A stretch of 64,000 nt of DNA from Lingula anatina (lineage: Eukaryota; Animalia; Brachiopoda): assembly GCA_051362555.1 (NCBI GenBank), contig CM120641.1, positions 28,712,401 through 28,776,400 on the forward strand, in the 5' to 3' direction. The position numbers were made by a program, and so were the translations under genes. Under the pieces are notes generated by a model that ran no database searches, had not been told where the DNA came from, and saw nothing but the letters and a program-made list of their open reading frames with translations. This document shows positions 4,691-63,920 of this stretch, piece by piece; position 1 is the stretch's first letter, and each line of letters starts with the position of its first letter.

Positions 4691-7600
4691 TTAGGATGTC
4701 ACAAGCACATAAATCATACTGAAATAAATAAAATTTGACATGAAAAATCATAATCCCCATATTTGAAAATGTTAACTTACACTATGTTAATACTTTGTTT
4801 AGACATTTCACTAAACTGGATTTCAAACATCTATATTCAACCACTAAAATCAATGACAGACCTTTATACTGTATGAAATCAGCAAATGTTTTTCTTACTT
4901 GCGCATTGGCTGCTTGCTTGTATAAACAACTTTATAATTATTTAAATGCTTTAAATCATTACCTGTATAAGTAATAGAAAAAAGAGAGAAGATAGAATGC
5001 TAGCTTGACCCATCCTTCTTTCTGAGCTCTGCTTAGTTCATCAGCATTCATTATGCTAGTGGGGTCATACAAGCCAGGGCCACTCATAACGGGCCTATGA
5101 AGATACCTACAAAATTATAATTTTCAGCATTATCAAGTAACTTTATATGTTACTGTTAAAGAAAACTGCACATAAAAATATGAAATTGCAATTCATCCCT
5201 CTCTTGCCTGCATTTAGTATATGTATAGACTTGTTCTGTAAAAATTGTTAAGTGTATGTTAAGCTCCCCCCCACCCCCCACCCATAAATAAGTGTACGTT
5301 TTATGGAAAGCTTAATCCCCTTCCCCTCAGATGACACGTTTCAAAATCCTGGATAAATCCTTGGCTTCATTCACATGTAATGTCTATTTTCTAAATTCTA
5401 TTTTCTATTCGCGGTATGTCTTATGATCACGGTCTGTGCCCTGAATATCCCGCGGCGTAATTACTGGCAGCGCGAGCCAGTTACTATAAGTTACTATAAG
5501 TAACTGGCTTGCGCTGCCAGTAATTACGCGGCGGGATATTCAGGACACAGACCGTGATCATAAGATAGCGCGAATAGAAAATAGAATTTAGAAAATAGAC
5601 ATTCCATGTGAACGAAGCCCTTGTTTCTAGCATGACTTTGATATGTATACAAACCTGTTGACATGGTAAGCAATTAGGGGAACATTCAGCAGTACAGTGC
5701 CCCACTGCCAGGCAAATACAAATAAGATTGTAAAAAGGGCATGGATCCCATACTCTGGCAGCACCAACTGAAACACAACATACACAAACTGAATGTTATA
5801 AGTGCAACTTTCAGGAAGAAAACATTCAATACAATCCGGCACTTTTGACAATGCAATGACAAAATGAATGTCAATAGCGGTGGGGTACTTAAATATAGAA
5901 ATCAAAATGGATATAGAACTACTGGTTTCTGTATCTGAGAGATTATAGGATAATGTAATACCAGACTAAAAATATACAAAACTAGAGGATCAGAGAGGCG
6001 ATACCGCCTCCGGATATTGTACCACCAGCTGGAGTAAGAGCATTCGAATGGAAACCCCCCCAAAAAAGGGACACCACAACCAGTCTTGTCCTTGACAAGC
6101 TCTATGCAATAAACAAGAATTCTCAAAGTATGAAAAAAAAATCGAAAAAAATATAACATAAAAATGGTTCAATCAAGTGGATTTTCCAATTGGCCTGTAT
6201 TTTCCTAACATTGATCACTCCTGTGATTTTCTGGACAATAGGCCTATTGCTTTTCCTTGAAATGAGTTATCAGTGTTGCATATATGCTGAGAAAAGAGAA
6301 AACCTAGGGGCAACACTGGGCATATCTCTGCTTGTTTTGAAGATGTGAGGGGCACGAAAATATGCAAAGTTCAGTTCATGATGAAAAAGTAGGTCAATTT
6401 CAAGGTCACAGTACATGACTTTCTATTCAAGTTCAATAGTAACTATGGGCATTTCCTTGCCAATTTTGGAAATGTAAAGGTCAGAAAACATGCGAAGTAC
6501 AGTTCATCATAAAAAGTAGGTCAAAGGTCAATTTCAAGGTCACAGTTAGATTGCCAGTATAAGACTTCCTATTTAGATTCAATAGTAACTATGGGCTTAT
6601 CTCTGCCAGTTTTTGAGATATAAGGGAGAGAATTTTTTCAAAGTTCAGTTCATGGTGAAAAGTAGGTCAAAGGTCAATTTCAAGGTCACAGTTAGATTAC
6701 CAGTATATGACTTCCCACTCAAGTTCAACAGTAACTATGGATGTACCTCTGCCAGTTTTAGAGATATAAGGGCTGGAAAATTTGAAAGTTCAGTTCATGG
6801 TGAAAATTAGGTCAGATGTCAATTTCAGGATCACAGTTAGATTGCCATTATATGACTTCCTATTCAAGTTCAATAGTAACTATGGGCGTATCTTTGCCAG
6901 TTTTGGAGATATAAAGATCAGAAAACTTGCAAAGTGCATTTCATCATGAAAGTAGGTCAAAGGTCAATTTCAAGGTCACAGTTATATTACCAGTATATGA
7001 CTTCCTATTCAAGTTCAAAAGTAACTATGGGCATATCTCTGCTAATTTTAGAGTATTTCACATTTTATTTTCACCACTGAATTTAGGATGTTGAACTTTT
7101 TGATATAGTGCAATGCCTTAGCCGTATTGAAAACAAAAAAATAGACACCACCCCCCAGTGTTGCCCTTGACAAGTTCTACAAAATGCATAAAACAAGAGG
7201 TCTCTAGCATTAACAGTACCAGAATTAGAGAGAGTTTTCAGTTTCGACATCTAATAGCTGCTGCTACCATGAAAATGCACCGATTGACCCCAAACTCACG
7301 AAAATGAAAGATGAATTTAAGGGTAACACCTGCCCATAATATTATAGGTAAGATCTGTTAAGTTTCTGAAAATTGGCTGAAATAAAAATTTTCTTGCAAA
7401 AATTTCCAATTTTTAGAAAATTTTGGCCCATTTGACTTTGAAATAAAGGTCAAAGGTCAAATCCAAGGGCATACTTGAAATCCTCACATATGACTTTCGG
7501 TCAGCCATCTGTAGAAATTTTTCCCATAATTCCATTGGTTTGGGAGATATTTAGCATTGAATTTTCAAAAATTTTGACAAGGGTGCATTTCAACGAGCGT

Positions 7601-15151: not shown

Positions 15152-29783
<14,632 letters not shown>

Positions 29784-30595: not shown

Positions 30596-33500
30596 TCATT
30601 GCTGCTGAAGGTAGGTCTCAAGGAGCCTCTTGAGAGAATCCCCAATGATGCGGTCCGACTTGCCATTCGGACTCGGTGTGGTCACTTGCCCCGCCAAGAC
30701 CTCGTTTTCATTTCTATTCACATTGCTGTCGTTCTCATCCTCCTCGACCTCGTTTTCACTGATACCGGTGATATGATTACCATCCGCGCTTTCCCCATCA
30801 GTGACAGCAGCTGGAGTTTCCGTGGAAGGCGACGCAGCTTCAGGACTATCGGGAGGAGCGACAGAGGGGGGCTGCACCGATTCCTCTACTGAATCCACCT
30901 CTTTGGGGGCCAGATCGCTCAGACAGAGCGTGACATTATCCTTCAGGGTTTGGGCTGGAAGGAAATTAGAAGTTCTTTTATTCAAGTTAAATAAAGTTTA
31001 CAAAATGTGGCTTAGTAATATGGACCGATTCCATATTATCATAGTGACACGGACAAATAAAATATTGGAATTTCGGTTGTGGCAAAAATAACGGACAAAA
31101 CCTTCTATAATCTGAATACATTAAAATCCTACTTAAAGAACTTAAAAATGAAGTTTTCGTTCTCAAATTACTGAAATAACACATCATGATAGTTACTTTT
31201 TAAAACAGATAAAAGACAGTATAGTACTTTTCCCGATTGTAAGCAAAATGAATTTTAGTAAACTGCACAGTTATTTGATTTTAAAACGTTCGTTAATTTA
31301 TTTTCTATCACCTTCATTAATCAACTGCTTTTGAAAATCCCTAGATGAGATGCTGTCGTCATCTGTCTTCTCCAACAAGATCTGCAAGGTTTTCAGTTGG
31401 TCAAGGATGAACCTCTGGGAATGAAAATGCGCAGGTTGTTTTAATGTAAAAATAATTAAATGCAGGCTTTTACTAAGTTTAGGGAAGGTTTCAAGATGGA
31501 CATGCATAATATGATTGAGATTTACTGATAAAATTTATTCATTGCTATGCGATTTTTCTTTTCAAGAAAAAGGTTTTACTGGAATAAAGTTGTAACCCAT
31601 AATGATTACATCTAATAGGCTATGTGTAAGAGTTCATCGAAACGGATTTTTTTATACTAACCTCCACTAAACCTGCACTTTCCTTTTTGGCCAACAACTC
31701 AGCAACCTCTTTGTGGTTGTTATCCCGAGCAACGTCGGAAGGACTTTTCCTATCTTCGTCAAAGACTTGAAAGTTGGCATTGGCCTTCAAGAGTTCCTTT
31801 ACAATAGGCACATTTCCTCTCATGCATGCAAGATGAAGGGGTGTTAGCTTGTAAGCATCACGGGCATCCACATCCGCTCCGAGTTCGACGAGTTTTTGGA
31901 CCGCTGTTAGCTGCTCTTCCATTATTGCGCAGTGTAAGGGCGACATGTCCTTCTGGGCGTCTTCCCATATCGTCGAGTGTTCCTCATTAATTTTGATCTT
32001 GATATCTTCAGGTGGGCCTTCGCCCCTACCGGACACCAGTACACGCCCATAGTCGGCCACATCAAGGGAACCTCCCTGTGTCTTTAGGAGGAAGGTTGAC
32101 TGTAGTCGCCTTTTAACGAGAACGTAGCGCCATACGGGTTTGTTTTTATCTTTATCTCGGACAAGATGAACTCTGTCACCTTCATTTAATAGGGTGCATG
32201 TCTCAAGCAAACCCGGATCTATCTGAAAGAGCTTCTCCAAGATGTCGATTTTCCCGTTACCTGCTGCAGAATGGAAACAGTTTTTGCCCTTGCTGTTTTC
32301 ACCTTTGGGGTCTGCTCCCCATTTAGAAATCATGTTATCTAGCAAGCTAAGGTGACCCCTAGAAGCCGCACAGCACAAAGCATTTGGGGTGACCTGAGCT
32401 CCATTTTCTGCAAGAGCTCTAACGACACCACCGAAGTTGTGGAGAGACGCCATCTCTAGACTTGTATAGCAATCTTTTGCGGCTTTGTTGAGATCACAGT
32501 TGTCCCTTGTCACGAGGTACTTCACCACATCTTCGTAGCCCAATCGCGAAGCTCTTCTTAGAGCAGTTTCACCTAATGCAGTCACGGCATTTATGTCAGC
32601 GCCGAGTTTTAGCAGAAGAACAACACCTTCTAAAAACCCAATCCCCGCAGCCATGTGCAGAGGTGTAAGTTGCAAGTCTCTAGCATCATCAATTGACGTC
32701 CTGTCCAGGCTGCATATTTCTTCAATGTTATGAATTTCTCTCGCCCGAACCATTTTATGTATAGATTTAAGGTTGGATTCAAGCTTGTCATGATGTTTGA
32801 TCCTTTTTGCCAATTGTTCACACTTTTTCTTCACGGCGATTTCGAGAGCTGTGCAGCCGGTGAAGTCATTGTGACCACTCACTTTTTGCCCCGAGAGGTG
32901 TTCCCAGTCAAAATGCCTCCAAATGGTGAATATGGCCTCCTGGTTATTGTGGTAGGCTGCATGTTGAAGGATATTGAAGCCTTGTTGATTTCTGTATCCC
33001 AAAATCTTTTCATAACTGACACTGCGCGCTGCTATGTCCATCTGATAGTACGGGAAGTTTGGGTCAGCTATTTTGTCGAACATGATTTCTACTTCCCGAG
33101 ATGATGAATCTGAAAATGGCAAACAACTATTCAATAACAGTATATCTTTAATACACTCTTAATTGATTAAAATATTCATTGAGGCATTGTAGGCTACGTA
33201 AGATAGGTGAAGATAGCTTGGGGGGGGGGGGGAGGGGGGAGTAGAATGTGAAACAGGACAGGGATATCTTTTTTTTACTGCTCAGGGTGTAATTAACCTT
33301 TGGAAGGTAGCTGGCATTTTCAAAAGAAGAAACCTGTTAAAAATACCTACGACCGATGTAGGCCTACATGTGCATGATGTTAACAAGCTCACGTTTTTGA
33401 TAAAAAGGTTAGAATATTTATCGCTTGAATAAAAAAGCACAAAACAATAGAGGTCAAGACTTCTATTCAAAAATAAAAAGTGACAGGAAGTAGCATAAAA

Positions 33501-33636
33501 ATCAGAAGAGAATTATCTTGCTATTGGTAAAGACAACAAAATAACCGAACAGCTAACAGAAAGACATATATAGGTAAGAAAATGTACCTTTCTCAACCAT
33601 GGAGGCTGTATCAACTGTACTGTTCTCTTCCATCAT
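30596..33636 (-). CDS. Ankyrin-repeat protein with inserted non-ANK domain, copy 1 (~650 aa). Coding exons 33636-33588, 33109-31662, 31414-31312, 30954-30596; non-coding first exon ends near 34008
   Basis: About 11 ANK repeats (TPLHMAAGIGFLEGVVLLLKLGADINA, TPLHLACMRGNVPIVKELLKANA and others); splice phases 1/0/1 are consistent; acidic low-complexity tail ending LLETYLQQQ*. Confidence 0.9.
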
Positions 33637-34039
33637 TGCACACTTGGTGAATGCCACTGAAAGCGAAATCGAGCTAGTTTAAATTTAAGAATAAATTTAC
33701 GAATAACGTTTTATATTTTCAATCACCACCAGCATTATCAGCACTAATTTTATGTCCGATGTAAAGTTTCGGAGTAAAAGGAGACCCGATCATTCAAAAA
33801 GCGTCATAGACTTTGCTAATGCTATTCCATTTAAAATGTATTGGTCTTAAGGTCGGTGGAATCGTGAAACTTCATATATAAGGTTGAGACATTGTGCCTA
33901 TTAACTGTGTCATCTCACTGCCATATACCAGCCAACTTCAGTGTCACTGATTAACTGCCACACGTATTGATTCTGATCAATAAATTGATGTTCATCGCCA
34001 TACTTACCTCCTATAAAGAGTTTAAGCTGTTCCAGTTAC

Positions 34040-34112
34040 GGCCTTAGTTTCACTTCCAGGAACGCAGTAGAAAAAAATCCAGGATCTATTTTTGTCAATG
34101 ATGACGTAATTG
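34040..34112 (-). promoter_or_regulatory. IRF/ETS-IRF + STAT + CRE-like motif cluster at the 5' end of ankyrin copy 1
   Basis: Minus-strand GGAAGTGAAACT (34046-34057) overlapping TTCCTGGAA (34054-34062), and TGACGTAA (34102-34109). Confidence 0.5.
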
Positions 34113-35365
34113 TTTTGCGTTGATTCCGGTTGTCCTTCATTTGTTTATAACCTAGTTTACTGATAACCCAAGATTTGTTTACATGTCCTTCCTACTGTAT
34201 TGAAAACTCACATAGGTTATCAGTAAACCACAAAAAGTATAAAGTGAAATACAGGTTACAGCAGGCCTACAGTGTACTTACACTGCGTGAGGTCGACATT
34301 CGTCGTAATTTGATCTAAGTATATTTTCCATAAGATAAGTGTCATTAATTGCTCAATAATTCCCCTAATGATACGGGAATCGGTTAAAATTTTCCATACT
34401 TGTATTACCACTGTTTTGTTCTTATTCACGATGGTAATATATGATTGATCAACACGAGTCCAGAGTCAGCTTAAATATGGTGCTTTATTCTTTCCTATAA
34501 AATGATTTCTTTTCACATATATTATGAAAGGATGTAGAACACGGTGGTAAGGCCAAACTGTGTTTTTCTCTGATTTAGCCTTTCTTCTGTGCTTCTTGAA
34601 TAGCTGTGAGAAATAGGATGTACCTCTTAGTACTGATGTTACTGCTATATGTATTACTGTTAAGTGGCGGGTGTGGACTTCAGATAGATTTCCTCTAATA
34701 TTTACTTATAGATTCAGCTTTCATAGTAACTTATACAGAATATATCATAGTTTGATACTTGATACTGCAGTGTACTGAGTTAGAGAGAAGGTTTGCCTGT
34801 TATTTACTTTATTATAGAACGTTTATCTTTGGGATGCTTGGAGAGGGCGCGGTCTGGCTATATTCAGTTTTTCAGGTGTACATGCTACATGAGGTGTAGG
34901 CCTACATGCTAGCTCTAAACCATAACATTAAAGGTATAAATATTACAGAACATAGAGAAGTAAAGTGCATAAATAAAATCGTTATAACACTTGCATACTG
35001 ATAACAATTTACACTTACTTATTCGGAAATAGATAAGATGCATAATTCATTTCTTGTCATGTCTAATTGACCATTTCCTGCAAATATTAAATTGACACAC
35101 ATTCAAAAAAAAAAAAAAAAAAAAAAAAATGACAATAAGACAGAAGCATTAAAAACTGAGAAACTGAGATGTGCATTTTTTTTTTTTGCTTATATTAAAA
35201 CATTGTCATTTTAGATTTTGGATGTTAAATTGTAGGCCTATACCAGTATAGATTTATAGGCCCCCTAATAGGCCTACATGTAAATAACGCATTGCACAAA
35301 ATGAAATCTGGACTGTTCCTGTATTAATTGACCGTTATCAAAAGGCATACGTTGGAATTTCCTTC

Positions 35366-38300
35366 TCATTGCTGCTTAAGGTAGGTCTCAAGTAGCCGCT
35401 GTAGAGAATCCCCAATGATGCGGTCCGACCTGTCATTCGGACGCGGTGTCATTTCTTCCCGCGCCAAGACCTCGTTTTCATTCCCATTACTGTCGTTCTC
35501 ATTCTCCTCAACTTCGTTTTCACTGATACTGGTGATATTATTATTATCCGCGCTTTCTCCATCAGGGACAGCAGCTGGAGTTTCCGTGGAAGGCGTGGCA
35601 GCCTCAGGACTATCGGGAGGAGCGACAGAGGGGGGCTGCGCCGATTCCTCTACTGAATCTACCTCTTTGGGTGCCAGATCGCTCAGATACAGCGTGGTAT
35701 TATCCTTCAGGGTTTGGACTGGAAAGGAATTACAAGTTTTTCATTCAAGTTAGGTAAAGTCTTTACAAAATGTGGCCTGTTTATTATCACAGCGACGCGT
35801 CAAGTAGAATATCGGTTGTGGCCAAAATAAAGGATAAAACCTTCTATAATCTGAATACATTAAAATTCTACGTTGAGAACTGCAAAATAAAGTTTTCGAT
35901 TTCAATCATTTAAATAACACATCACGAAATTTACTTTTTTAAAAAAGATTAAAGACAGCAGAATACTTTTCCAATTGCAAACGAAAGGGGACTTTTTTTT
36001 TTAGCATACTGCATTTGATTTTAAAACGTTTATTAATTTATTTTCTATCACCTTCATTAATCAACTGCTTTTGAAAATCCCTGGATGAGATGCTGTCGTC
36101 ATCTGTCTTCTCCAACAACATCTGCAGAGTTTGCAGTTGGTCCAGAATGAACCTCTGGGAATTAAAAATGCACAGGTTGTTAAGTTACGGGAACGTTTCA
36201 AGATGGGCCGTATAATTGAGATTCACCTATAAAATTTATTCATTGCTATGGGATTTTTATTTTCAAGAAGAACGTTTTACTGGAATAAAGAAGTAATATA
36301 CAGAGATTGCATCTGCACGTACGAGCTCACCGAAATGGATTTTTTTTATACTAACCTCCACTAAACCTGCACTTTCCTTCTTGGCCAACAACTCGACGAC
36401 CTCTTTGTGGTTGTTATCCCGAGCAACGTCGGAAGGACTTTTCCTGTCTTCGTCAAAGACTTGAAAGTTGGCATTGGCCTTCAAGAGTTCTTTTACGATA
36501 GGCACATTTCCTCTCATGCATGCAAGATGAAGGGGTGTTAGCTTATAAGCATCACGGGCATCCACATCCGCTCCAAGTTCGACGAGCTTTTGGACTGCTG
36601 TTAGCTGCTCTTCCATTACTGCGCAGTGTAAGGGCGACATGTCCTGCTGGGCGTCTTCCCATATCGTCGAGTGTTCCTCATTTATTTTGGTCTTGATATC
36701 TTGAGGCGGGTCTTGGCCCCAGCCGGATTTCAGTACACGCCCATAGTCGGCCACATCAAGGGAACCTCCCTGTGTCTTTAGCATGAAAGTTGAGTGAAGT
36801 CGCCTTTTAACGAGAACGTAATGCCATGCGGGTTTGTTATTATCCTTACCTCGGACAAGATAAACCCTGACACCTTCATTTACTAGGGTGCGTGTCTCAA
36901 GCAAACCTGGATCTATCTGAAAGAGCTTCTCCAAGACGTCGATTTTCCCATCACTTGCTGCACAATGGAAACAGTTTTTGCCCTCGCTGTTCAAACCTTT
37001 AGGGTCCGCGCCACATTCGGAAATCATGTTTTCTAGCAAGCTGAGGTGACCCTTGGAAGCAGCACACCACAAAGCATGTGGGGTAAGCTTTGCTCCATTT
37101 TCTGCAAGAATTCTAACGATACCCCCAAAGTTGTGGAGAGAAGCTGCCTCCAGACTTGTACAGTAATTTTTTTCAGCTTTGTTGGGATCGCAGTTGTTCC
37201 TTGTCACGAGGTACCTCACCACATCTTCGTAGCCCATTCGAGATGCTCTTCCGAGAGCAGTTTCACCGAAACCAGTCACGGCGTTGATGTTGGCACCGAG
37301 TTTTAGCAGGAGAACAACACCTTCTAAAAACCCAATCCCCGCAGCTATATGCAGAGGTTGAAGTTGAATATCGTCATCTGTAGCATCCCCAATGGCCGTC
37401 CTGTCCTGGTTGCAAATTTCTTCTATCTTATGAATTTCCTTCGCCCGCACCATTTTGTGTATATATTTAAGATTGGATTCAACTTTGTTACTATCCTTGA
37501 TACTTTTTTCTGATTCTCCAAATTTTTTCTTCTCGACGATTTCGAGGGCTGTACAGCCGGTGAAGTCATTGTGGCCACTCACCTTTTGCCCCGAGAGGTG
37601 TCCCCAGTCGAAATGCCTCCAAAGGGTGTATATGGCCTCGTGGTTATTGTAGTAGGCTGCATGTTGAAGCACATTGAACCCTTGTTGATTTCTGTATTCC
37701 AGAGCCTTTTCTTGACTGACACTGCGCGCTACTATGTCCATCTGATAGCATGGGAAGTTCGGGTCAGCTATTTTGCCGAACAGCATTTCTACTTCCCGAG
37801 ATGATGAATCTGAAAACGGCAAACAACTATTCATTAATGAACCCCAACAGAACTAAAGTGAAGCTTTGAGGTAGGGATGGTGAGGCCATGGTTGAGGACT
37901 GGAGGTTGGATGTAAAGGGAACAGTGGTCATACAGGTTTTTTACAACCCGGGAAGCAACTTTAGGAAGGTAGGGGACAGATTTTCAAAAGAAGAAACCCG
38001 TTGAAAATAGTTAAGATACGTGGTGTAAACATGCTCTTTTTTTTTTTATAAAAAGGTTGCAATATACATATACGGTATCAGGGCAATCCCCCCCCCCCGG
38101 ACAATCCCCCCTCAGGACAATTCCCCTCCCCGACAACCCCCTGTAATGAATTTAATAATGAAAATGAACAATATGATACTGAGAAAAATTATAAATGCCT
38201 GGCTTTAATCAAAATGTATCTCCAGGTAGGGGTGGGTAATCTCTCTCAGATAATCTCATTTATCAAAGTATTCCTTTGATCAACTAACTGAGACTTTGAA

Positions 38301-38699
38301 TTGTTTTACCCCCCCCCCCCCCCCCCCCTCTTCCTAGCCTTCATCACGTTGCCTGCCTTTAATCAAGGTGCACCTCCAGGTAAAGTTGGGGTAAACAGAT
38401 CATCTCTACGTGCACATCAAGGTATCCCTTTGATGAACTAGGCGGGCCGGGGGATATTCCGGGGGGGGGGGGGGATTGTCAGGGAAGGAATGGCTAGAAT
38501 CATATCGCTTGTGTATCAAGCTAGAGGTTAAAACTTGTATTCCAATAGAAAAAAGTGACAAAAAGCAGTGTGAAAATGACTAAATGGTCATCTTTTCTGA
38601 GATAATATTCTTGCTTTTTTTTGTAACAGTTACCAATAGGTATATCGTACCTTTCTCAGCCTTGGTGGCTGAACCAACTGCGCTGTTCTCTTCCATCAT
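35366..38699 (-). CDS. Ankyrin-repeat protein with inserted domain, copy 2. Coding exons 38699-38651, 37809-36356, 36154-36052, 35718-35366
   Basis: Same exon structure and phases as copy 1 with intact reading frames; C-terminus LLETYLKQQ*. Confidence 0.9.
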
Positions 38700-39094
38700 T
38701 GCACGCTTGGTGGTGGTCACTGAAAGCGAAGTCTCGTTAGTTTTAAATTATCCTACCAATAAATCGTTTTATTGGTTCAAGATAAAGATGACCATCTTTA
38801 TCATGATCAACATTAATACTACTTCTGATTGTGCAGAGTTTCGGAGTAAAAGGAGTCTCTATATATTGTTCAAAATGCGTCACATACTTTGCTCACAGGC
38901 GTATCTCATGTAGGCCTAAATGTGGGTGGAACTTTAAAACTTCAAGGTCAAGATAGTACTTATTAACTGTGTCATATACAAGACAACTTCAGTGCCACTA
39001 AAGCACTGCCACACTAAATGATTCTGATCACTAAATTGATATTCATAGCCAAACTTACCTCCTTTAAAGGAATTAAAACTGCTTCATTTACGCT

Positions 39095-39165
39095 CTTAGT
39101 TTCATTTCCAGTAGGCTAACATAAGGAAAATCCCCGATCTATTTTTAGCGATGATGACGTAGTTG
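39095..39165 (-). promoter_or_regulatory. IRF + NF-kB + CRE-like motif cluster at the 5' end of ankyrin copy 2
   Basis: Minus-strand GGAAATGAAACT (39098-39109) and GGGGATTTTCC (39125-39135); TGACGTAG (39155-39162). Confidence 0.5.
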
Positions 39166-39644
39166 TTTTGCATTGATTCTGGCCACCCTTTGTGTTCCTA
39201 TAACCTAGATTGTTGATAACCCGGATTGATTTGTTTACACCTGTATTGAAAATTCACGAGTCACCACAAAAAAAGTCTGAAATGAAATGCATATAAGTAC
39301 ACTGCTAAAAGCTGTAACTGCGTGAGGTTCACATTGCAATATTGGTCTCAGTACAGGTATTTTGCGAACGATAGATCCAAACTAATAAATGCAGCTGACA
39401 TTTCTGACTGGGATTTTATCGACACAGGGAGTACAATCACGCTGAGGCCATTGCCAAGACAATCAAATTGCCCCTGGGGCTTATTTTTTAAGCCAGAGCG
39501 TTTTTCACATTCTTTGTTAAACTTTTTTATAGCAAATTAAAATTATTCGTCGAATCAATGGCCTACATGTCCTACAATAAAATTGAACCACATTGGACAG
39601 ATTTTAACCGATGCCTGGAATGTTATTCCAGGTTGAACTCTAAA

Positions 39645-40005
39645 AACCTATCCCAAGGAATGCCTTGCCGCTTGAGAGCGCTGGTAGCAGCCAGAAGAAG
39701 TTCAGGCGTAACAGCGACCGTTAATGTGACTAGACACTGACATGAGGGTCCTTTGTGGAGCGTGTAACTCTTTTACAGACAATAATTTTGAAAATATGGA
39801 GATCCAAAATATCTCTTTTAATGGTTGTCGGGTGACATAGAACAGGCGATGAACTGATGTCACAATGACATCAAAGAGATAATTAAAAGTTTCAAAAACA
39901 CGATTTTAATCCTTATTTTCATTTATCAGTCAGCAAAATAGGAAAAAACTGATGAAAAATGATTTAGAAAAAAATATTCCATACTAAATGTCAAGTCTGT
40001 ATATA
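39645..40005 (+). repeat. Dispersed repeat (probable TE remnant), second copy at ~60930-61320
   Basis: Co-linear similarity ggaatgcctt(g/a)ccgcttgagagc(g/c)ctggtagcagccaga...actagacactgacatgagggtcct...ggagatccaaaatatc...aaatgtcaagtctgtatat. Confidence 0.8.
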
Positions 40006-40230
40006 ATTTATAAAGTGTTTGTAAAAAGTTGCTTAATTCACACCAGAAAATCGTTGCGGTTATTGCTCATACTACTTACCAGTACATAATTATACGGTTT
40101 TTTTTACATTGTACACGCTTCTATCGAACTTCCTGAAACAGCATTTTTGAAATCTGCTCTAATTATGTAACATGATATTTGAGAAGATCAAAATCTCAAA
40201 CCCTCTTTTTAGCTCTGGCGTTATACCGAT

Positions 40231-40261
<31 letters not shown>

Positions 40262-42117
40262 AGGGGGGGGGAAGGGTCGGTTTCGTATCCACGGACCCCC
40301 CATTCAATTAATCCGGGATCCGCCCCTGATTCAGTCATACGTGCAGGAACCAGGAGGTATGGGGCACTGCCCATTTCATTAATCCAAATGTAAATTGTAA
40401 TATGCTATTAAAATTATACCCTAAAACAGTATGCTATAGAGATAAAAAAAATCCAAATAGCTACATACTCGAGAACATCTTACACCTATCTCAGCTATCA
40501 CGTGATGCAAATAAGTTCCCTGGGGGCCAGGGGTCAAGTTAGGTATATTGTGAGACAATTAAATTTGCCTGAAAAAAGCAGATTCAACCAGACTAGTAAC
40601 ATAAGTATGTCAACACTGAAAACTTGATGCTCAGGACCATTGCTTATCATGACTACATGCATAAAATGAGCAGAAATTCGAGTCCGTCACAATAATTTTC
40701 TCCAAACAACAGCATTTATTGAAAATTTAATTATTATCTTACCTGTAATTGGTTTTTATGTGAGAATTAGGCTGTTTTTTATCTTGACATGATCTTTACC
40801 TTTGTTTTGTTACTTTTATATCTATAGGGCCTACCTCTTGGTTATTGTGTTCTTAAAGTCTAGTTTACATTTGACATGCGACGTCCGTACGATGCAGTGC
40901 TCGTTTGCGTAAATTCTGGATGTACATAAAAACGCTGAGTCAGCCTATTTTAAGAAACCCCCTCATCCGGGTACTAATAAGGAGTTGCCCCCTATCCAAA
41001 ATTGACAATGGTCATTCACTGTGGAAAGTTTCATGCTTTCATCAACTTTTGCACAATTGTTAGGCTTAGCTGCCTGACTAGACGTGTAAATGCTTAGTTT
41101 TAAAAGATTCCGTGTGGAATGTTATAGCAAACTACAGTCAAGCATCTGATTAATATTAGGCCTATATGGAAAGATGATGATGAATATTTTTTAATATAGC
41201 CAGTCTTGTTAGTTCCATATACACAAAAGCTGGACAGATAGCTCCCTACTCAGTGGTGACCATATGAAACCACAATAGTTGGCATTTTTGCTAATTCTTT
41301 AAAATATCAACAACATTGTTAAAAAATTCACCTAATGATACAGGAAACGGTTAATTTTTTCCGTACTTGTGCGCCAACCACAATTTACACTTGAACTTAC
41401 TTATTCGGAAGTAGATTAAGATTAATAATTCTTCATTTCTTAACGTGTCTTATTGACGATTTCATGCTAATGCTAAATGTGCACACACACATTCAATAAA
41501 AAATTCACAATAAGACAGAAACATTTATAATTGACATAAGCATATTTTTCGCTTAGGCCACTCTGTTTTCATTTTATGGATGGCATCCTCTCGGACCCAT
41601 AAACTAATGCATGAGGGTGAATAAAAAACAACCAACATAATGCTGCTACAGTAAAGAAATACACTGCTGGAAACACAAACTGCAGCACACAACACAGTGT
41701 GTCACACAAACACGTCTGGTATTTTGTTCCTTGAGATCAGGCGAAAATCAATGCGCGCACGGATGTCATCCAAATAAATAAATAAATAAACAAATAAATA
41801 AATAAATAAATCACTGTGGCCTGATATAAACATATTGTCAGTGTAGATTTTGTATGGCTTTCAAATTTATGCGCCCGGTTTTAAAATCATATAGCGATTT
41901 TACGACAATCGTTCACTATCCAATCAAAGTGACAGCCGAGCATGCCAGGGCTCATCCTGTCGGTGTTCTGGCTGATACTCCGAAATGCGATCTGACACAC
42001 ACCTTGAAAACGGGTAGTGTGGTCCGATATACCGGTTAATTCAGGATCCTTAGGTGCCGAGTCTGGTAGTTGGGTAGGCCTGAGTATATGATTTTAAACA
42101 TCGATGGAATTTCTTTC

Positions 42118-45100
42118 TCATTGCTGCTGCAAGTAGGTCTCAAGTAGCCTCTGTAGAGAATCCCCAATGATGCGGTCCGACCTGCCATTCGGACGCGCTG
42201 TGGTCACTTCCCCCGCCAAGACCTCGTTTTCATTCCTATTCTCATTACTGTCGTTTTCATCCTCCTCAACCTCGTTTTCACTGCTACTGGTGATATTATT
42301 ATTATCCGCCTTTTTTCCATCAGTAACAGCAGCTGGAGTTTCCGTGGAAGGTGTGGCAGCTTCAGGACTATCGGGAGGAGCGACAGAGGGGGGCTGCACC
42401 GACTCCTCTACTGATTCCACATCTGTGGGGGCCAGATCGCTCAGATACAGGGTGGCATTATCCTTGAGAGTCTGGACTGGAAGGAAATTAGAAGTTTAAT
42501 TTTAATTCATGTTAAATAAAGTTTACAAAATATAACTTGGTTATATAGACTGATTCAGTATTATCACAGCGACGCGTAAAGTAGAATATCGGCTGGGGCC
42601 AAAATAAAGGATAAAACCTTCAATACACATTCAAAGCCTACATTCAGTAGTGCAAAATTAAGTTTTCGTCTTCAAATAACTTATATTTAACATCGCGAAA
42701 TTAACTTTAAAAAAAAAAAAAAAGAGAAAGGTTTTTTTTTTTAGCATACTGCATTGTTGTGCGAATTGTATATGATTTTAAGACGTTCATTGATTTATTT
42801 TGTATCACCTTCATTCGTCAACTGCTTTTGAAAATCCCTGGATGAGATGCTGTCGTCATCTGTCTTCTCCAAGAAAATCTGCATGATTTTCAGTTGGTCC
42901 AGGATGAACCTCTGGTAATGAAAATGCACAGGTTGTTGAAACGTAAAAATGTATATAATATACACACGCTTTTGCTAAGTTAAGGGGAGGTTTCAAGATG
43001 GACCGTATGATTAAGATTTAGGCCTACTTATATAATTTATTCACTGCTATAGAATTTTTATTTCAAGAAAAACGTTTTACTGGAGTAAAGTAGTAATATA
43101 TAGAGATTACATCCGCGCGAACGAGCTCACCGAAATGGATTTTTTTTCTTTTTTATACTAACCTCCACTAAACCTGCACTTTCCTTTTTGGCCAACAACT
43201 CGACGATCTCTTTGTGGTTGTTATCCCGAGCAACGTTGGAAGGACTTTTCCTATCTCCGTCTAAGACTTGAAAGTTGGCATTGGCCTTCAAGAGTTCTTT
43301 CACGATAGGCACGTTTCCTCTCATGCATGCGAGATGAAGGGGTGTTAGCTTGTAAGCATCACGGGCATCCACATCCGCTCCAAGTTCGACGAGCTTTTGG
43401 ACCGCTGTTAGCTGCTCTTTCATTACTGCGCAGTGTAAAGGCGACATGTCCTTTTGGGCGTCCTCCCGTATTTTTGAGTGTTCCTCATCAATTGTGGTCT
43501 TGGTATCTTCAGGTGGGTCTTGGCCCCAGCCGGATTTCAGTACACGCCCATAGTCGGCCACATCAAGGGAACCTCCCTGTGTCTTTAGGAGAAAGGTTGA
43601 CTGAAGTCGCCTTTTAACGAGAACGTAATGCCATGCAGGTCTGTTTTTATCCTTACCTCGGACAAGATAAACCATGTCACCTTCATATAATAGGGTGCGT
43701 GTCTCAAGCAAATCTGGATCTATCTGAAAGAGCTTCTCCAAGACGTCGATTTTCCCATTACTTGCTGCACTGTGGAAACAGTTTTTGCCCTTGCTGTTGA
43801 CACGTTTGGGGTCTGCCCCGCTTTCGGAAATAATGTTTTCTAGCAAGCTAAGGTGACCCTCAAAAGCAGCACACCACAAAGCATGTGGGGTGACCTTAGC
43901 TCCATTTTCTGCAAGAATTCTAACGATACCACCAAAGTTGTGGAGAGAAGCCACCTCAAGACTTGTACATTGATCTTTTACAGCTTTGTTGGGATCACAG
44001 TTGTTCCTTGTCACGAGGTACTTCACCACATCTTCATAGCCCATTCGAGAAGCTCTTCCGAGAGCAGTTTCACCGAAAGCAGTCACGGCGTTGATGTCGG
44101 CACCGAGTTTTAGCAGGAGAACAACACCTTCCAAAAACCCAATCCCCGCAGCCATATGCAGAGGTGTTAGTTGTCCATCGTCATCTGTAACATCCCCTAT
44201 GGCAGTCCTGTCCTGATTGCATATTTCTTCTATTTTATGAATTTCTCTCGCCCGCACCGTTTTGTGTATATGTTTCAGGTTGGATTCAGATTTGTCGAGT
44301 TTTTTTATCCTTTCTTCCGATTGTTTAAACTTTTTCTTCTCGGCGATTTCTAGGGCTGTACAGCCGGCGAATTCATTGTGACCACTCGCTTTTTGCACAG
44401 AGAGGTACTCCCAGTTATAATGCCTCCAAAGGGTGTACATGGCGTCGTGGTTATCCAAATAAGCTGCATGTTGAAGGATATTGAAGCCTTGTTGATTTCT
44501 GTATTCCAAAACCTTTTCGTAACTGGCACTGCGCGCTGCTATGTCCATCTGATAGTATGGGAAGTTCTGGTCAGCTATTTTCTCGAACAGTAATTCTACT
44601 TCTCGAGATGATGAATCTGAAAACGGCAAACAACTAGTCATCAATGAATTCCAACAAAACTAAAAATGACAATGCATTCTTGATAATATATGCTTTGAGG
44701 TGAGGCCATGGTTGAGGGCTGGAGGTTGAATGTAAAGGAGGACAGTGGCAGGGGCGGATCCAGAGTTATTTTCTGACAGTCTTCCAAATTATCTTTGTTG
44801 ATCCATCCTCCTTTTTCTGACCGTCTTCCGACAGAAATAATTAGATACCCGTCAATGTAAACTTGAAAATCTGACCGTCTTCCGGAAGACCCAGAAGACC
44901 CCCTAAATCCGCCCCTGAGTGGACATACATTTTTTACTTCCCGGGAAGCAACTTTAGGAAAGTAGTGGACACATTTTCAAAAGAAGAAACCCGTTGAAAA
45001 TACTTAAGACACATGGTGTAAACATGCTCACGTTTTTGATAAAAAGGTTGCAATATGTATATCGCACGGTATCAGGGCGACCCCCCTCCCCGACAATCCC

Positions 45101-45840
45101 CCTGTAATGGATTTAATAATGGAAATGAGCAATGTGATATTGAGAAAAATTATAAATGCCTGGCTTTAATGAAAATGTATCTCCAGGCAGAGGTGGGTCA
45201 TCTCAGATGGTGGGTCATCTCACTTATCTAGGTATTCCTTTGATTTAGTGGCACTTAACCCCCCCCCCCCCCCCCCCATCCCAGGTTTCATCACGTTGCC
45301 TGCTTTTAATCAAGGTGCACCTCCAGGTTAAGTTGGGGGTTAACAGTGGGGTAAACAGATAATTTCACACATCCAGGTATCTCCTTGATGAACTAACTTT
45401 TAGTTTCAATTATTTCTAAACTACCCCTTGGCATATACATGTATAAACAAATTTCGAAACTTATTTTCTTTTTCAAGTTTCATTATTATTAATTACGTGA
45501 CCTGTTATTTAAAAAAAAATCATATCAAATGAAATGCAAATAAAATTAAATTTGTTTGATTTTAGAAAAATGGTCAAGTGGTCTACAAAATTTGCATCTG
45601 TAGCATCTAATAATTTGCATCAATGGCATTAAATAATTTAAGGTTACGTTTACCCCCTCAGGTCTGTTTAAGCGCGTAAGTGAACTTCCTTAATCGATAG
45701 CTTTGTTCTTATTTCATGTTCAGTTTCCTTTCTGGTATTCAGTAAAATATTCAAGACATGTACATGTGCTTTAAACAGAAAATTATTTTCTGGGAAGGTG
45801 TGGGTTGTCTTTGGGGGGGGGGGGGGGGTCCAGGGGGATA

Positions 45841-45875
<35 letters not shown>

Positions 45876-46116
45876 GGGGGGTGATAAGGAAGGAATGGCC
45901 TAGAATCATATTGCTTGAACATAGGTATATCAAACTAGAGGTCAAGACTTGCATTCTAATAGAAAAATAGTGACAGAAAGCAGTGTGAAAATGACTAAAT
46001 GATCATCTTTTCTGACATAATATTTTGCTTGTTTTTTTTTTGTGACAGTTATCAATACGTATCGTACCTTTCTCAACCTTGGTGGCTGAACCAACTGCGC
46101 TGTTCTCTTCCATCAT
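42118..46116 (-). CDS. Ankyrin-repeat protein with inserted domain, copy 3. Coding exons 46116-46068, 44616-43163, 42911-42809, 42476-42118
   Basis: Same exon structure and intact reading frames; closer to copy 2 in the first intron and upstream DNA. Confidence 0.9.
44749..44917. mobile_element. MITE with CAGGGGCGGAT TIRs and a 5-bp TSD (AGTGG) in intron 1 of ankyrin copy 3
   Basis: TIR caggggcggat...atccgcccctg. The paralogous site in copy 2 (acagtggtcatac, ~37921) is empty. A near-identical copy lies at 63762-63920. Confidence 0.9.
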
Positions 46117-46499
46117 TGTACGCCTGGTGGTGGTCACTGAAAGCGAATTCAGTCTCGTTAGTTTTAAATTATCCTACCAATTAATCTTTTTATTGATTCA
46201 AGATAAAGATGGTCGTTTTTATCATGACCAACATTAATATTATTTCTGATTGTGCAAAGTTTCGGAGTAAAGCGAGTCTCTATATATCGTTCAAAATGCG
46301 TCATAGACTTTGCTCACAGGCGTATTTCATGTAAATGTGGGTGGAACTTTGAAACTTTAAGGTCGAGATTGTGCCTATTTACTGACCTATACCAGACAAC
46401 TTCAATTTCACTAAAGCACTGCCACACTAAATGATTCTGATCACTAAATTGATATTCATAGCCAAACTTACCTCCTTTAAAACTCCTTCTTTTACTGCT

Positions 46500-46562
46500 C
46501 TTAGTTTCATTTCAAGTGACGTACAGAAAAATCCCCGATCTATTTTTAGCAATGATGACGAA
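46500..46562 (-). promoter_or_regulatory. IRF + NF-kB + CRE-like motif cluster at the 5' end of ankyrin copy 3
   Basis: Minus-strand TGAAATGAAACT (46503-46514) and GGGGATTTTTC (46526-46536); TGACGTAC (46517-46524). Confidence 0.45.
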
Positions 46563-47271
46563 GTTGTTTTGCATTGATTCTGGCCAACCTTTGTGTTTCT
46601 ATAACCTAGTTTATTGATAACCCGGATCGATTTGTTTACACCTGTATTGAAAATTCACGAGTAACCACAAAAAAGTCTGAAATGAAATGCATAAAGATAC
46701 ACTGCTTAAAGTTGTGACTGCGTGAGATCGACATTGCAATATGGTTTCAGCTATTACAGGTCTTTTTACGAACGATAGATCCCAAGAAATAAAAGCAGCT
46801 GAGATATCTGACTGGGCTTTTATCAGCACAGGGAGTAATCACACTGAATTCATTGACAATCAACATTTGCCCTGGGCTTATTCTTTTTAAACCAGAGCGT
46901 TTTTCACATTCTTTGTTCAACTGGAATTCTTAGCATTCTAAAATGCTAACGTCATTTTTATTTATTTACATAGTTTCGTGCATTTGGACAGGTCTATGTC
47001 AAATATTTATGATGTTAAGGAGACCTTGAATCATATACTCAAGGTAGGCTACATGTAAAAGTGCTGTATGTTGGAAAAGTTTTTGTCAGTATACAAAAAT
47101 TGTTTTTAAAAATAATTTCAAAGACATGATATTGTATTCTATTTCATTAACTATAGTTTAAAAGGTGTGTTTGCATCAAGACGAATTAATTATGCATGTA
47201 AACAAATTTCGATAGCTTACAGTGGCGTAGCTCTATCCGTACGGATGTACGCAGTGAGCGAACACATGCTT

Positions 47272-62060: not shown

Positions 62061-63761
62061 CTGGAAAGAAGGAAATTATCTGTTTAATACTAAATGCTGG
62101 ATACAGAGGAATTATTTACACCAAACACAAAAATCACTGTTATTTATTTATTTGTGTGTGTTTCTATTTGACTTTAGTATTGTAAAATTCAAAAGAAATG
62201 CCCCAATAAAACGACACAATTTACAGTGGTCGCCACTTATGAAACAAAACACCAGAAAAGACAGAAAGTACTATATACAGAAATACTATAACAAATGCTC
62301 TTTCAGTCCACTATTACTTCTGACAAGATCATCATCTGTCTCGTATTTGGCACGAAGCCGCCGTTTAATCACGTTTTGCCTATCTATTGCTTGAAGCACG
62401 CGACTGCAACCCACTGTGTCACGAAGCTGAGAAAGGCAAGGGTCCTGCCGGCGGTTTTTACGAGACATAAAATGAAAGACATCTTTATACAGGTACAGCA
62501 GCTTGCTACAGAAAAGTCGGGTGCAAACGAGACTTCAAACTTTAAAGTGAAAGTACATTTGAACCGCGCGTCGACAGAGAGTGGATTCCGAAAAAACGCA
62601 TATAAAACCATTTCTATTACTACACTTCTAATATCGACTTTAAATAATCTTTAAAATAGAGGGTATATACTTATTTATAGGTTATTTACTTTGGAATAAT
62701 ATATTCCATCAGTCTCATACATAGAATCACATATACATATGAAATATTAAAGAAGTTCGATCTGTGGCTAAAGTAACCAGACAAATCCAACATGAACAAT
62801 TTCCAAAATAAGCTGAAGTCAGCCTTCTGACAGATACAATCGACAACAGTTGTCAAACTTGTTCTCAATCTGGCTGTTGCTGGCCATGATCTTAAACAAC
62901 GCGTAGACGATTGCCCAGCCTCCAACTGAATGAATGAACATAAGCACGCACTCCCTCTCTCTTTCACATTCCTAACACACGCGCGCACGGTTCAGCTCGC
63001 AGATGGACACAATATGTCCTTGTAAAGGAATACATACGAAGTGAAGAACAAACTGCCTTGAATTGACCGGAACCCGAGCAGGACATTTAATAAATATGGT
63101 ATCTATTTACACTCTAAAACATTTGGATTTTTCAGTAGACTTAACAAGAGTAAATTACAGAAATAAGGTGAACAAAATAAATAAATAGCTATAATATTAA
63201 GATAATAAAAATATAATAAAGGTTAACTTTAAACCAGTCAAATCAGTGAAAACGTTAATTAGCTTGTTGAATCATACCTGATAATTATATAGCACAAGCT
63301 GAAAATATGCAGTTCAGGGCTAATGAACACAAGAAATCAGTGACTGTAGGCAATATCAGCTCCTTGAATCCGAACCAATCAACATCCCATGGAAGATACG
63401 AAAGGCAATCAACAGCCGTCACCAGCCACCCATGAATAGGGACGGGGGTGGGTTGTCGACCTACCTGACATTTATAAGAGTGTCCTGACCGCTATACCAA
63501 CTAAGGTTATTCTGATGAAGGCCAACGTCCAGGTTGGCCCCAAGCTAACGGTATGAAAATTATTTTCGGCTTGTGCTAAAGTAATTGTCGTGTATACCTG
63601 CAAATCAGCTATAAAACCTTTTGAAAAAAATGTATTTAGTTCTTATTTAAAATTGTCCTCATACTCTAAAGATTTTTAATACATCGGGGGAATGTTTCAT
63701 TCATTTGGTCTTGTAAAGCTACATGTAGGTCGCCATAGGTTTTCAGTCTGGGATTACATGG

Positions 63762-63920
63762 CAGGGGCGGATCCAGAGATATTTTCTGACAGTCTTCCAC
63801 ATTATCTTTGTTGATTCATCCTCCATTTTTTGACCGTCTTCCGACAGAAAAAATTAAATGTAAACTTGAAAATCTGACCGTCTTCCGGAAGACCCAGAAG
63901 ACGGTCTAAATCCGCCCCTG
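63762..63920. mobile_element. MITE, same family as 44749-44917, 5-bp TSD CATGG
   Basis: Identical TIRs and near-identical interior; catgg on both flanks. Confidence 0.9.

Follow-up and report, generated by a model that had tools for sequence, protein, structure and literature searches.

A tandem array of ankyrin genes in Lingula anatina carries an apparently undescribed domain, likely of rickettsial origin

Three genes of the brachiopod Lingula anatina, arranged in tandem, encode ankyrin-repeat proteins interrupted by an insert of about 72 residues that defines an apparently undescribed mobile domain and, with it, an apparently undescribed gene family. The genes, here called g1, g2 and g3, lie on the minus strand between positions 30,596 and ~46,560 of a 64,000-nucleotide stretch of contig CM120641.1 (assembly GCA_051362555.1), hereafter the window. 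The domain was likely taken from Anaplasmataceae-like (rickettsial) bacteria, as judged from sequence comparisons. We tentatively view the three products as predicted cytosolic ankyrin proteins with a separately folding domain, likely of Anaplasmataceae-like origin. Induced by infection, they would work in immune and cell-death signalling as adaptors or sensors.

The coding spans of the three genes are as follows.

30596..33636, minus strand: g1 coding span, exons 33636-33588, 33109-31662, 31414-31312 and 30954-30596; 652 aa
35366..38699, minus strand: g2 coding span, exons 38699-38651, 37809-36356, 36154-36052 and 35718-35366; 652 aa
42118..46116, minus strand: g3 coding span, exons 46116-46068, 44616-43163, 42911-42809 and 42476-42118; 654 aa

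Each gene has four coding exons (49, 1448-1454, 103 and 353-359 nt) separated by GT-AG introns, and none contains an internal stop; the exon models and open frames thus bear out an earlier note on this DNA, which had proposed three intact paralogs with a common exon structure. The proteins are 82-85% identical, and the DNA copies, including promoters and much of the introns, are 70-86% identical. A conserved donor (GAG/GTAAGT) and acceptor (TTTCAG/) point to an additional 5' untranslated region (UTR) exon, exon 1, upstream of the coding exons. The putative exon 1–exon 2 splice is supported by two L. anatina RefSeq models, P0006 and P0005 (1,277 and 1,287 aa, in that order), in each of which the annotation appears to have merged two neighbouring paralogs: the junction peptides correspond to translated exon 2 UTR and, in P0006, which reads across the same exon 1–exon 2 joint, also the end of exon 1. 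While g1 is 97% identical to the second half of P0006 and g2 97.6% identical to the first half of P0005, the best database matches of g3 reach no more than 83-85% identity. The first half of P0006 is made of g1-like and g2-like blocks and includes the SGRG tetrad of g1, while the g1-like half of P0005 has SGWG, a pattern suggestive of gene conversion, or of copies turning over between haplotypes.

Profile searches with Pfam recognized only ankyrin families in the window proteins (Ank_2, E 1e-42 to 1e-46). In the AlphaFold model of the full-length homolog P0008, which is 83% identical to g3 (mean predicted local distance difference test score, pLDDT, 83), an N-terminal cap is followed by eight ankyrin-type helix pairs, an alpha/beta insert (~residues 328-396), three further pairs and a helical hairpin, after which the chain runs through a disordered, acidic part into a terminal helix; the count of 8+3 repeats is a prediction from this model. 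Pfam, the model and Foldseek concur in placing the proteins in the ankyrin-repeat superfamily, which is defined by tandem helix-turn-helix repeats of 33 aa, and the similarity to solved ankyrins found by Foldseek is of a generic, repeat-based kind (18-27% identity). The model and the exon models agree with the ~11 repeats, encoded by one ~1.45-kb exon, that had been read from the sequence; the insert does lie between repeats 8 and 9, as had been stated, but is ~72 rather than ~65 residues long. A search with the N-terminal region returned P0008 as the sole match among 489 candidates. Secretion of the g1-g3 products was considered and rejected, since they have no hydrophobic N-terminus or signal peptide. 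The acidic, PEST-like tail of the three proteins contains 46-48% P, E, S or T and is followed by an amphipathic helix at the C-terminus, which is nearly invariant and has an LxxLL motif (30596-30650, 35366-35420 and 42118-42170).

The insert occupies the following positions.

31977..32195, minus strand: g1 insert, degenerate (G14D, H23R, W57R)
36671..36889, minus strand: g2 insert, consensus WHY and SGWG motifs intact
43478..43696, minus strand: g3 insert, predicted b-b-a-b-a fold, pLDDT 85.6 when modelled alone

Across 312 distinct domains, W22, Y24, G50, S55, G56, W57, G58 and P61 are 91-100% conserved, and the positions altered in g1 are conserved at 90% (G14), 76% (H23) and 91% (W57). The same degenerate version is found in the database, P0006_d2 being 100% identical to g1 across the insert. 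A profile built from 39 rows retrieved 2,323 clusters (50% identity) at E <=0.001 and 765 at 1e-10; the best 150 of the 2,323 were examined. No named family matched the insert in Pfam (best E 0.11) or, significantly, in NCBIfam; among its relatives, the best PADLOC match (E 0.029, in 1 of 39) and the best PHROGs match (E 0.013) fell below significance, and PDB sequences gave a best E of 0.64. Structural comparison was no more telling, as the best matches (Z 3.7, root-mean-square deviation 2.9, 47 aligned residues; Z 3.8, 3.2, 51 aligned) are at noise level, Foldseek searches of PDB and viral structures and VIA-align runs gave nothing above background, and an ESM Atlas search gave no usable match. 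Searches of phage and plasmid records did not recover the domain, and viral contigs yielded a single 15-residue match among 45 candidates. In the literature searched, which left out most subscription papers, the domain is undescribed, and the supplements of PMC8195603 and PMC3482391 could list it. The null Pfam, NCBIfam, PDB, fold, PHROGs and PADLOC searches accord with the initial impression that no named family fits.

Relatives of the insert are abundant in bacteria. Of 108 candidate stretches in prokaryote genomes, 83 proved to be relatives, and the 79 loci kept belong mostly to Wolbachia, Ehrlichia, Anaplasma, other Rickettsiales or alphaproteobacteria, with a few in planctomycete, verrucomicrobial and actinobacterial metagenome-assembled genomes (MAGs). 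Neorickettsia and Xenohaliotis are also carriers, each of the five Rickettsiales genomes searched contains a relative, and the identity of the window insert to bacterial copies reaches 66%, in agreement with its earlier description as bacterial-like. The bacterial domain is either a standalone protein of ~80 aa or the C-terminal part of a longer one (~150-200 aa) whose N-terminal arm is basic. The names retrieved (from Wolbachia, Ehrlichia, Anaplasma and Neorickettsia) are all 'hypothetical' or 'uncharacterized', and miaA is the divergent neighbour in 5 of the 32 loci examined, the remaining neighbours being variable and mostly housekeeping genes. A second, divergent standalone copy is present in the Xenohaliotis genome (L085, G001:C31:5350-5550). 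Wolbachia-type genomes hold a second copy embedded in ankyrin repeats; two such ankyrin genes (L055:4818-5744 and L058:4677-5150, the latter with its frame broken by a stop) adjoin a GGDEF response regulator. In addition, the domain stands at the end of bacterial-type TIR proteins and HEAT-repeat proteins (P0096, P0143, P0099, P0109 and L026:4923-5210), which are possible prokaryotic immune systems.

One alternative reading of the insert is that it binds nucleic acid or ribosomes, which would make g1-g3 RNA- or DNA-binding ankyrin proteins. The N-terminal arm of the Anaplasmataceae proteins is basic in six of six (net charge +6 to +19), the Lingula domains carry +1 to +7, and the weakest-level fold matches include ribosomal S16 chains (Z 3.5 or less). 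The Ehrlichia ruminantium relative, as far as the accessible part of PMC8229282 goes (Table S6), was detected from one peptide and at 120 h only; its tag, ERGA_CDS_04480, which we assigned indirectly, was confirmed by the mass of 17.514 kDa. However, charge is not conserved across groups (-7 to +7) and every fold match is below Z 4, that is, at noise level, so that we regard nucleic-acid binding as improbable.

To place the animal copies, a careful tree was computed from 81 of the 312 domains, picked after a quick tree of 220 rows; it is unrooted and based on 75 columns, and many of its eukaryote labels were assigned from architecture. All 18 animal-type ankyrin-embedded domains and one unnamed protein form one group (90/78, not starred), which Xenohaliotis and similar marine Anaplasmataceae sequences adjoin. 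The kinase-TPR proteins fall together with a MAG cluster of Anaplasmataceae (100/97). The standalone diversity found in bacteria makes a bacterial origin the parsimonious reading, short of proof. The capture does not seem recent: corals and a hemichordate share the ankyrin-insert-ankyrin scaffold with Lingula, and the third-codon-position GC content (GC3) of the insert (0.42-0.46, against 0.44-0.55 in the repeats) is host-like, which led us to reject a compositional signal of recent transfer. The scaffold itself is probably old in animals, or has spread among them, because, when the pair of divergent repeats at the N-terminus of the Lingula proteins is used as a profile, Glandiceps and coral proteins rank next (E 5e-6 to 0.01), ahead of the Wolbachia-type ankyrins.

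The same tree bears on the possibility that g1-g3 are captured-bait sensors, in which the domain would pair with its own kind and the host copy would detect the homologous protein of invading Anaplasmataceae. Different eukaryote-type groups adjoin different bacterial groups, namely the kinase-TPR proteins and their MAG cluster on the one hand and a Meloidogyne PDZ fusion near Wolbachia on the other. Approximately unbiased (AU) tests disfavoured a single clade of all 38 eukaryote-type rows (p-AU 0.027), and gave 0.48 for the animal ankyrin forms together and 0.29 when the Wolbachia ankyrin forms were added. Two copies of the domain are found in 21 of 291 proteins (2 of the 21 being fused gene models), and the high identity to bacterial copies also fits. 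The AU test is nevertheless weak, since rows were selected once a first tree was available, many of them lack a name and the simpler model rejects too readily; moreover, the literature searched contains no report of the bacterial protein reaching the host cytosol. We therefore consider a bait function unlikely, and give as little weight to its extended form, in which several animal lineages would have captured the domain independently from infecting Anaplasmataceae-type bacteria and built it, as a bait pairing with the bacterial protein, into scaffolds of the ankyrin, kinase-TPR, caspase-like, PDZ and CIDE-N/RHIM types.

The immune adaptor or sensor reading draws first on the company that the domain keeps. 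Among 45 family members scanned (the categories overlap), we found 14 with ankyrin repeats, 6 with TPR, 4 with a kinase, 2 with TIR_2, 2 with a weak PDZ and 1 with HEAT; 20 had no Pfam match. Named eukaryote carriers are Lingula, Stylophora, Oculina, Glandiceps, Sycon (a standalone C-terminal form), Meloidogyne (a PDZ fusion) and Nephila (an entry resembling the Wolbachia-type ankyrin proteins). The Oculina (coral) member has MIB_HERC2 and ZZ domains and a weak TRADD-like_N match (E 0.0013) that stays under the cut-off. Five TPR proteins (P0068, P0069, P0072, P0073 and P0075) bear two copies of the domain, and three of them have ZZ-like and kinase regions. In 16 unnamed proteins the domain is joined to a region with an invariant D-C-x-x-S-G (and G-H-G in 3 of the 16), which we read as caspase-like from its motifs; P0064, P0128, P0162, P0187 and others (alignment A5) make up an expanded family with these motifs, with the domain at the C-terminus and without a Pfam or PDB match.

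Ten Lingula database proteins bear the insert, which supports the lineage expansion that had been suggested; copy number was counted from these database proteins, and the ten would correspond to two loci, each present twice as haplotype scaffolds. In four Lingula paralogs (P0020, P0021, P0022 and P0024), which are 33-44% identical to the window proteins in BLAST segments, a CIDE-N-like region (E 6e-5 to 0.011) precedes the ankyrin-insert-ankyrin scaffold. The RHIM core is V/I-Q-V/I-G. The tetrads of the four paralogs are IQIG, IQIG, IQVG and FQIG and match it or nearly do so: P0020, P0022 and P0024 have the core and P0021 has FQIG. These paralogs may represent a branch of the family concerned with amyloid signalling or cell death. 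A RIPK1-like RHIM protein is reported in Lingula in the accessible part of PMC12119088. The kinship of the array with immune genes proposed in the earlier note thus gains from relatives fused to immune and cell-death modules.

The second line of evidence comes from the 5' ends of the genes, where the following motifs were located: elements resembling the interferon-stimulated response element (ISRE), kB sites and cAMP response elements (CRE).

34008..34115, minus strand: g1 motif cluster and end of the putative UTR exon 1; ISRE-like 34056-34046, full CRE-like TTACGTCA 34109-34102, kB decayed
39059..39165, minus strand: g2 motif cluster; ISRE-like 39109-39098, kB GGGGATTTTCC 39135-39125, CRE half-site at 39155
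46472..46565, minus strand: g3 motif cluster; ISRE-like 46513-46504, kB-like with one mismatch ~46536-46526, CRE half-sites 46517 and 46556

The ISRE-like sequence GAA(A/G)TGAAACT is present in all three promoters, with 10 of 11 columns identical, as is a CRE half-site; the kB site is perfect in g2 only, has one mismatch in g3 (kB-like in 2 of 3) and is lost in g1. The IRF/kB/CRE cluster that had been described at each 5' end therefore holds for the first and last elements, and fails for kB in g1. All three motifs lie within 110 nt of the putative exon 1 donor, and loose patterns of the three together occur in none of 6,272 other overlapping 110-nt windows; the patterns were chosen post hoc, and the three promoters represent one duplicated event.

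Thirdly, the observed/expected CpG ratio (CpG o/e) of g1-g3 is 0.70-0.72, as compared with 0.27 over the neighbouring housekeeping gene; a high CpG o/e in invertebrates fits an unmethylated, regulated gene. CpG o/e rises sharply at ~30,000, from ~0.2-0.5 in the housekeeping block to ~0.7 in the ankyrin/peroxidase block, a step that is likely a methylation boundary. As for expression, runs X7-X9 (one study) give low-depth reads over the exons of g1-g3, up to ~30 in g1 exon 3, while coverage is near zero in runs X1, X2 and X4 and exon 1 is almost uncovered. Three spliced reads of run X7 join 42476 to 42809 and confirm the last intron of g3 as predicted. The reads show fixed differences of ~4-7% from the window and hence stem from alleles or paralogs that have diverged, or from a related species. 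The data show transcription and splicing of the family, not its induction.

Finally, the duplicates have been kept under constraint. The g1-g3 pairs have a synonymous divergence (dS) of 0.21-0.25 and a ratio of nonsynonymous to synonymous divergence (dN/dS) of 0.36-0.38 overall. With dS about 0.2, only the triplication is recent, which agrees with the recent duplication first claimed. The dN/dS is 0.05-0.18 in repeats 9-11 and 0.51-0.67 (on few sites) in the insert, and variable columns amount to 48% in repeats 1-3 and 21% in repeats 9-11. That g1-g3 are redundant recent duplicates drifting toward loss would fit the absence of the conserved insert residues in g1 and the dN/dS of the insert. 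But three frames have stayed open at this dS with dN/dS below 0.4, and the family is transcribed and spliced; this explanation is very improbable and already largely excluded.

Taken with the contrast between variable and conserved repeats, the fusion partners, the ISRE-like element in three of three promoters, the CpG o/e and the X7-X9 coverage lead us to the following scheme for g1-g3 as immune adaptors or sensors. An early animal lineage would have taken the domain from an intracellular bacterium and set it in an ankyrin loop. IRF- and NF-kB-type sites would turn the genes on. The variable repeats 1-8, together with the W-H-Y and S-G-W-G residues of the insert, may form the recognition side for a partner or ligand, while the conserved repeats 9-11 and the helical hairpin would dock on a fixed host partner. 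As g1-g3 are without the CIDE-N/RHIM module of their four sister paralogs, they could feed into that signalling arm or dampen it, and g1 (SGRG) might be an altered or inactive version.

Several observations weigh against this scheme. The window proteins contain no death-fold, RHIM, TIR or enzyme domain. No region has a dN/dS above 1, and pairwise counts thus revealed no positive selection. The kB site is lost in g1, and the high CpG o/e is not specific to the array, since the peroxidase gene and the whole right half of the window are equally high. Given the read mismatch, the differences between runs, which have no housekeeping control beside them, may reflect divergence and not regulation. 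The caspase-like region has no significant profile match, and its group profile no PDB match. The 119 ORFs (open reading frames) around the bacterial loci show no defence-island pattern and the setting is of housekeeping type. Lastly, the tree is short and unrooted, with its key branch unstarred.

Some of these points would suit an alternative in which g1-g3 are non-immune cytosolic scaffolds (tissue-specific, stress-related or developmental), the insert being an ancient binding module of a generic kind, and the promoter motifs being incidental. Purifying selection throughout g1-g3, the lack of an effector domain in them, the resemblance of the bacterial gene to a conserved housekeeping gene beside miaA, and the frequency of the single motifs, none of which is rare (91, 265 and 320 of the 6,272 windows), are all consistent with it. 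It is at odds with the recurrence of TIR, kinase, CIDE-N/RHIM-like and caspase-like fusions in unrelated lineages and with the three motifs occurring together nowhere else in the window, and we find it rather doubtful.

We also compared g1-g3 with known systems. IkB proteins have an ankyrin stack, an acidic PEST-like tail and a kB site in the promoter, all of which recur here; however, g1-g3 have 11 repeats and an inserted domain, and the DSGxxS phosphodegron is present in none of the three. RNase L uses ankyrin repeats as a sensor scaffold in an interferon-type pathway; g1-g3 share the scaffold but lack its pseudokinase and KEN RNase domains, profile matches being to ankyrin families only. 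The integrated domains of plant NLRs (nucleotide-binding leucine-rich-repeat receptors) are likewise foreign modules in repeat receptors with tandem, diversified copies, and they mimic host targets. Profile scans found no NB-ARC or NACHT NTPase in g1-g3, and the module resembles a bacterial protein and not a host target; hence, of the 'integrated domain' receptor proposed previously, the embedded module is real and the likeness loose. The alternative proposal of an antimicrobial effector is not supported, as nothing points to an antimicrobial enzyme or toxin. The core (V/I)Q(V/I)G is absent from g1-g3. The automatic names of the Lingula and coral homologues ('ankyrin-1/2/3-like', 'PP6 regulatory ankyrin repeat subunit') reflect generic repeat similarity only: profile scans and the model show no ZU5, UPA or death domain in g1-g3, which with 11 repeats, as against 24, are not canonical ankyrins (AnkR/B/G).

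Two published systems come closer. Tox-REase-8, in the accessible text of Zhang et al. 2012 (PMC3482391), is an ankyrin-associated domain of Wolbachia-like bacteria with a patchy distribution in animals, read there as repeated transfer, and the insert domain resembles it in all these respects. Tox-REase-8 is, however, a nuclease with a D-(E/Q)xK site, whereas the ~72-residue insert is without an acidic catalytic signature, interrupts the ankyrin stack and also occurs in bacteria as a conserved gene of its own. Marine invertebrates have TRADD-N/Death-like adaptor systems (Kaur et al. 2021, PMC8195603), which likewise involve a small domain that bacteria share with marine animals, that has undergone lineage expansion and that is joined to ankyrins, caspases and kinases; TRADD-N has an RRM-like, four-stranded fold, unlike the three-stranded b-b-a-b-a predicted for the insert, and the accessible text of that paper does not describe our domain. 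g1-g3 thus belong neither to the TRADD-N nor to the Tox-REase-8 systems, nor to IkB, RNase L, NLRs or canonical ankyrins.

The array separates a housekeeping block from a haem peroxidase gene, as had been noted. On its left are cornichon, ribosomal L11 and a DUF382 gene, which we take to be SF3B2-like; the peroxidase gene lies to its right, at ~51.3-58.8 kb. Short interspersed repeats, probably resembling miniature inverted-repeat transposable elements, are found at 44746-44917 (also at 63759-63920) and ~41900-42083, that is, in g3 intron 2 and past the g3 3' end, where they draw in numerous RNA reads that originate elsewhere. Tandem arrays (units of ~140 and ~160 bp) lie at 6317-7053 and 22002-23676, in intronic or intergenic DNA.

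Through this array a large domain family without a name comes to light, with 2,323 clusters and no profile or fold match; it recurs in immune-type fusions in animals and bacteria and is conserved as 'hypothetical' across Wolbachia, Ehrlichia, Anaplasma and Neorickettsia. A recent screen of transfer-derived chimeric genes, in its accessible part, covered arthropods and excluded ankyrin repeats (10.1101/2025.08.30.672725). With ~72 residues, a confident model and near-invariant motifs, the domain is directly testable, and the SGRG version of g1 provides a natural control. Should the bait reading be true, animal immune sensing would have been built from a pathogen's own part, and a role would be assigned to an uncharacterised core gene that Wolbachia shares with its relatives.

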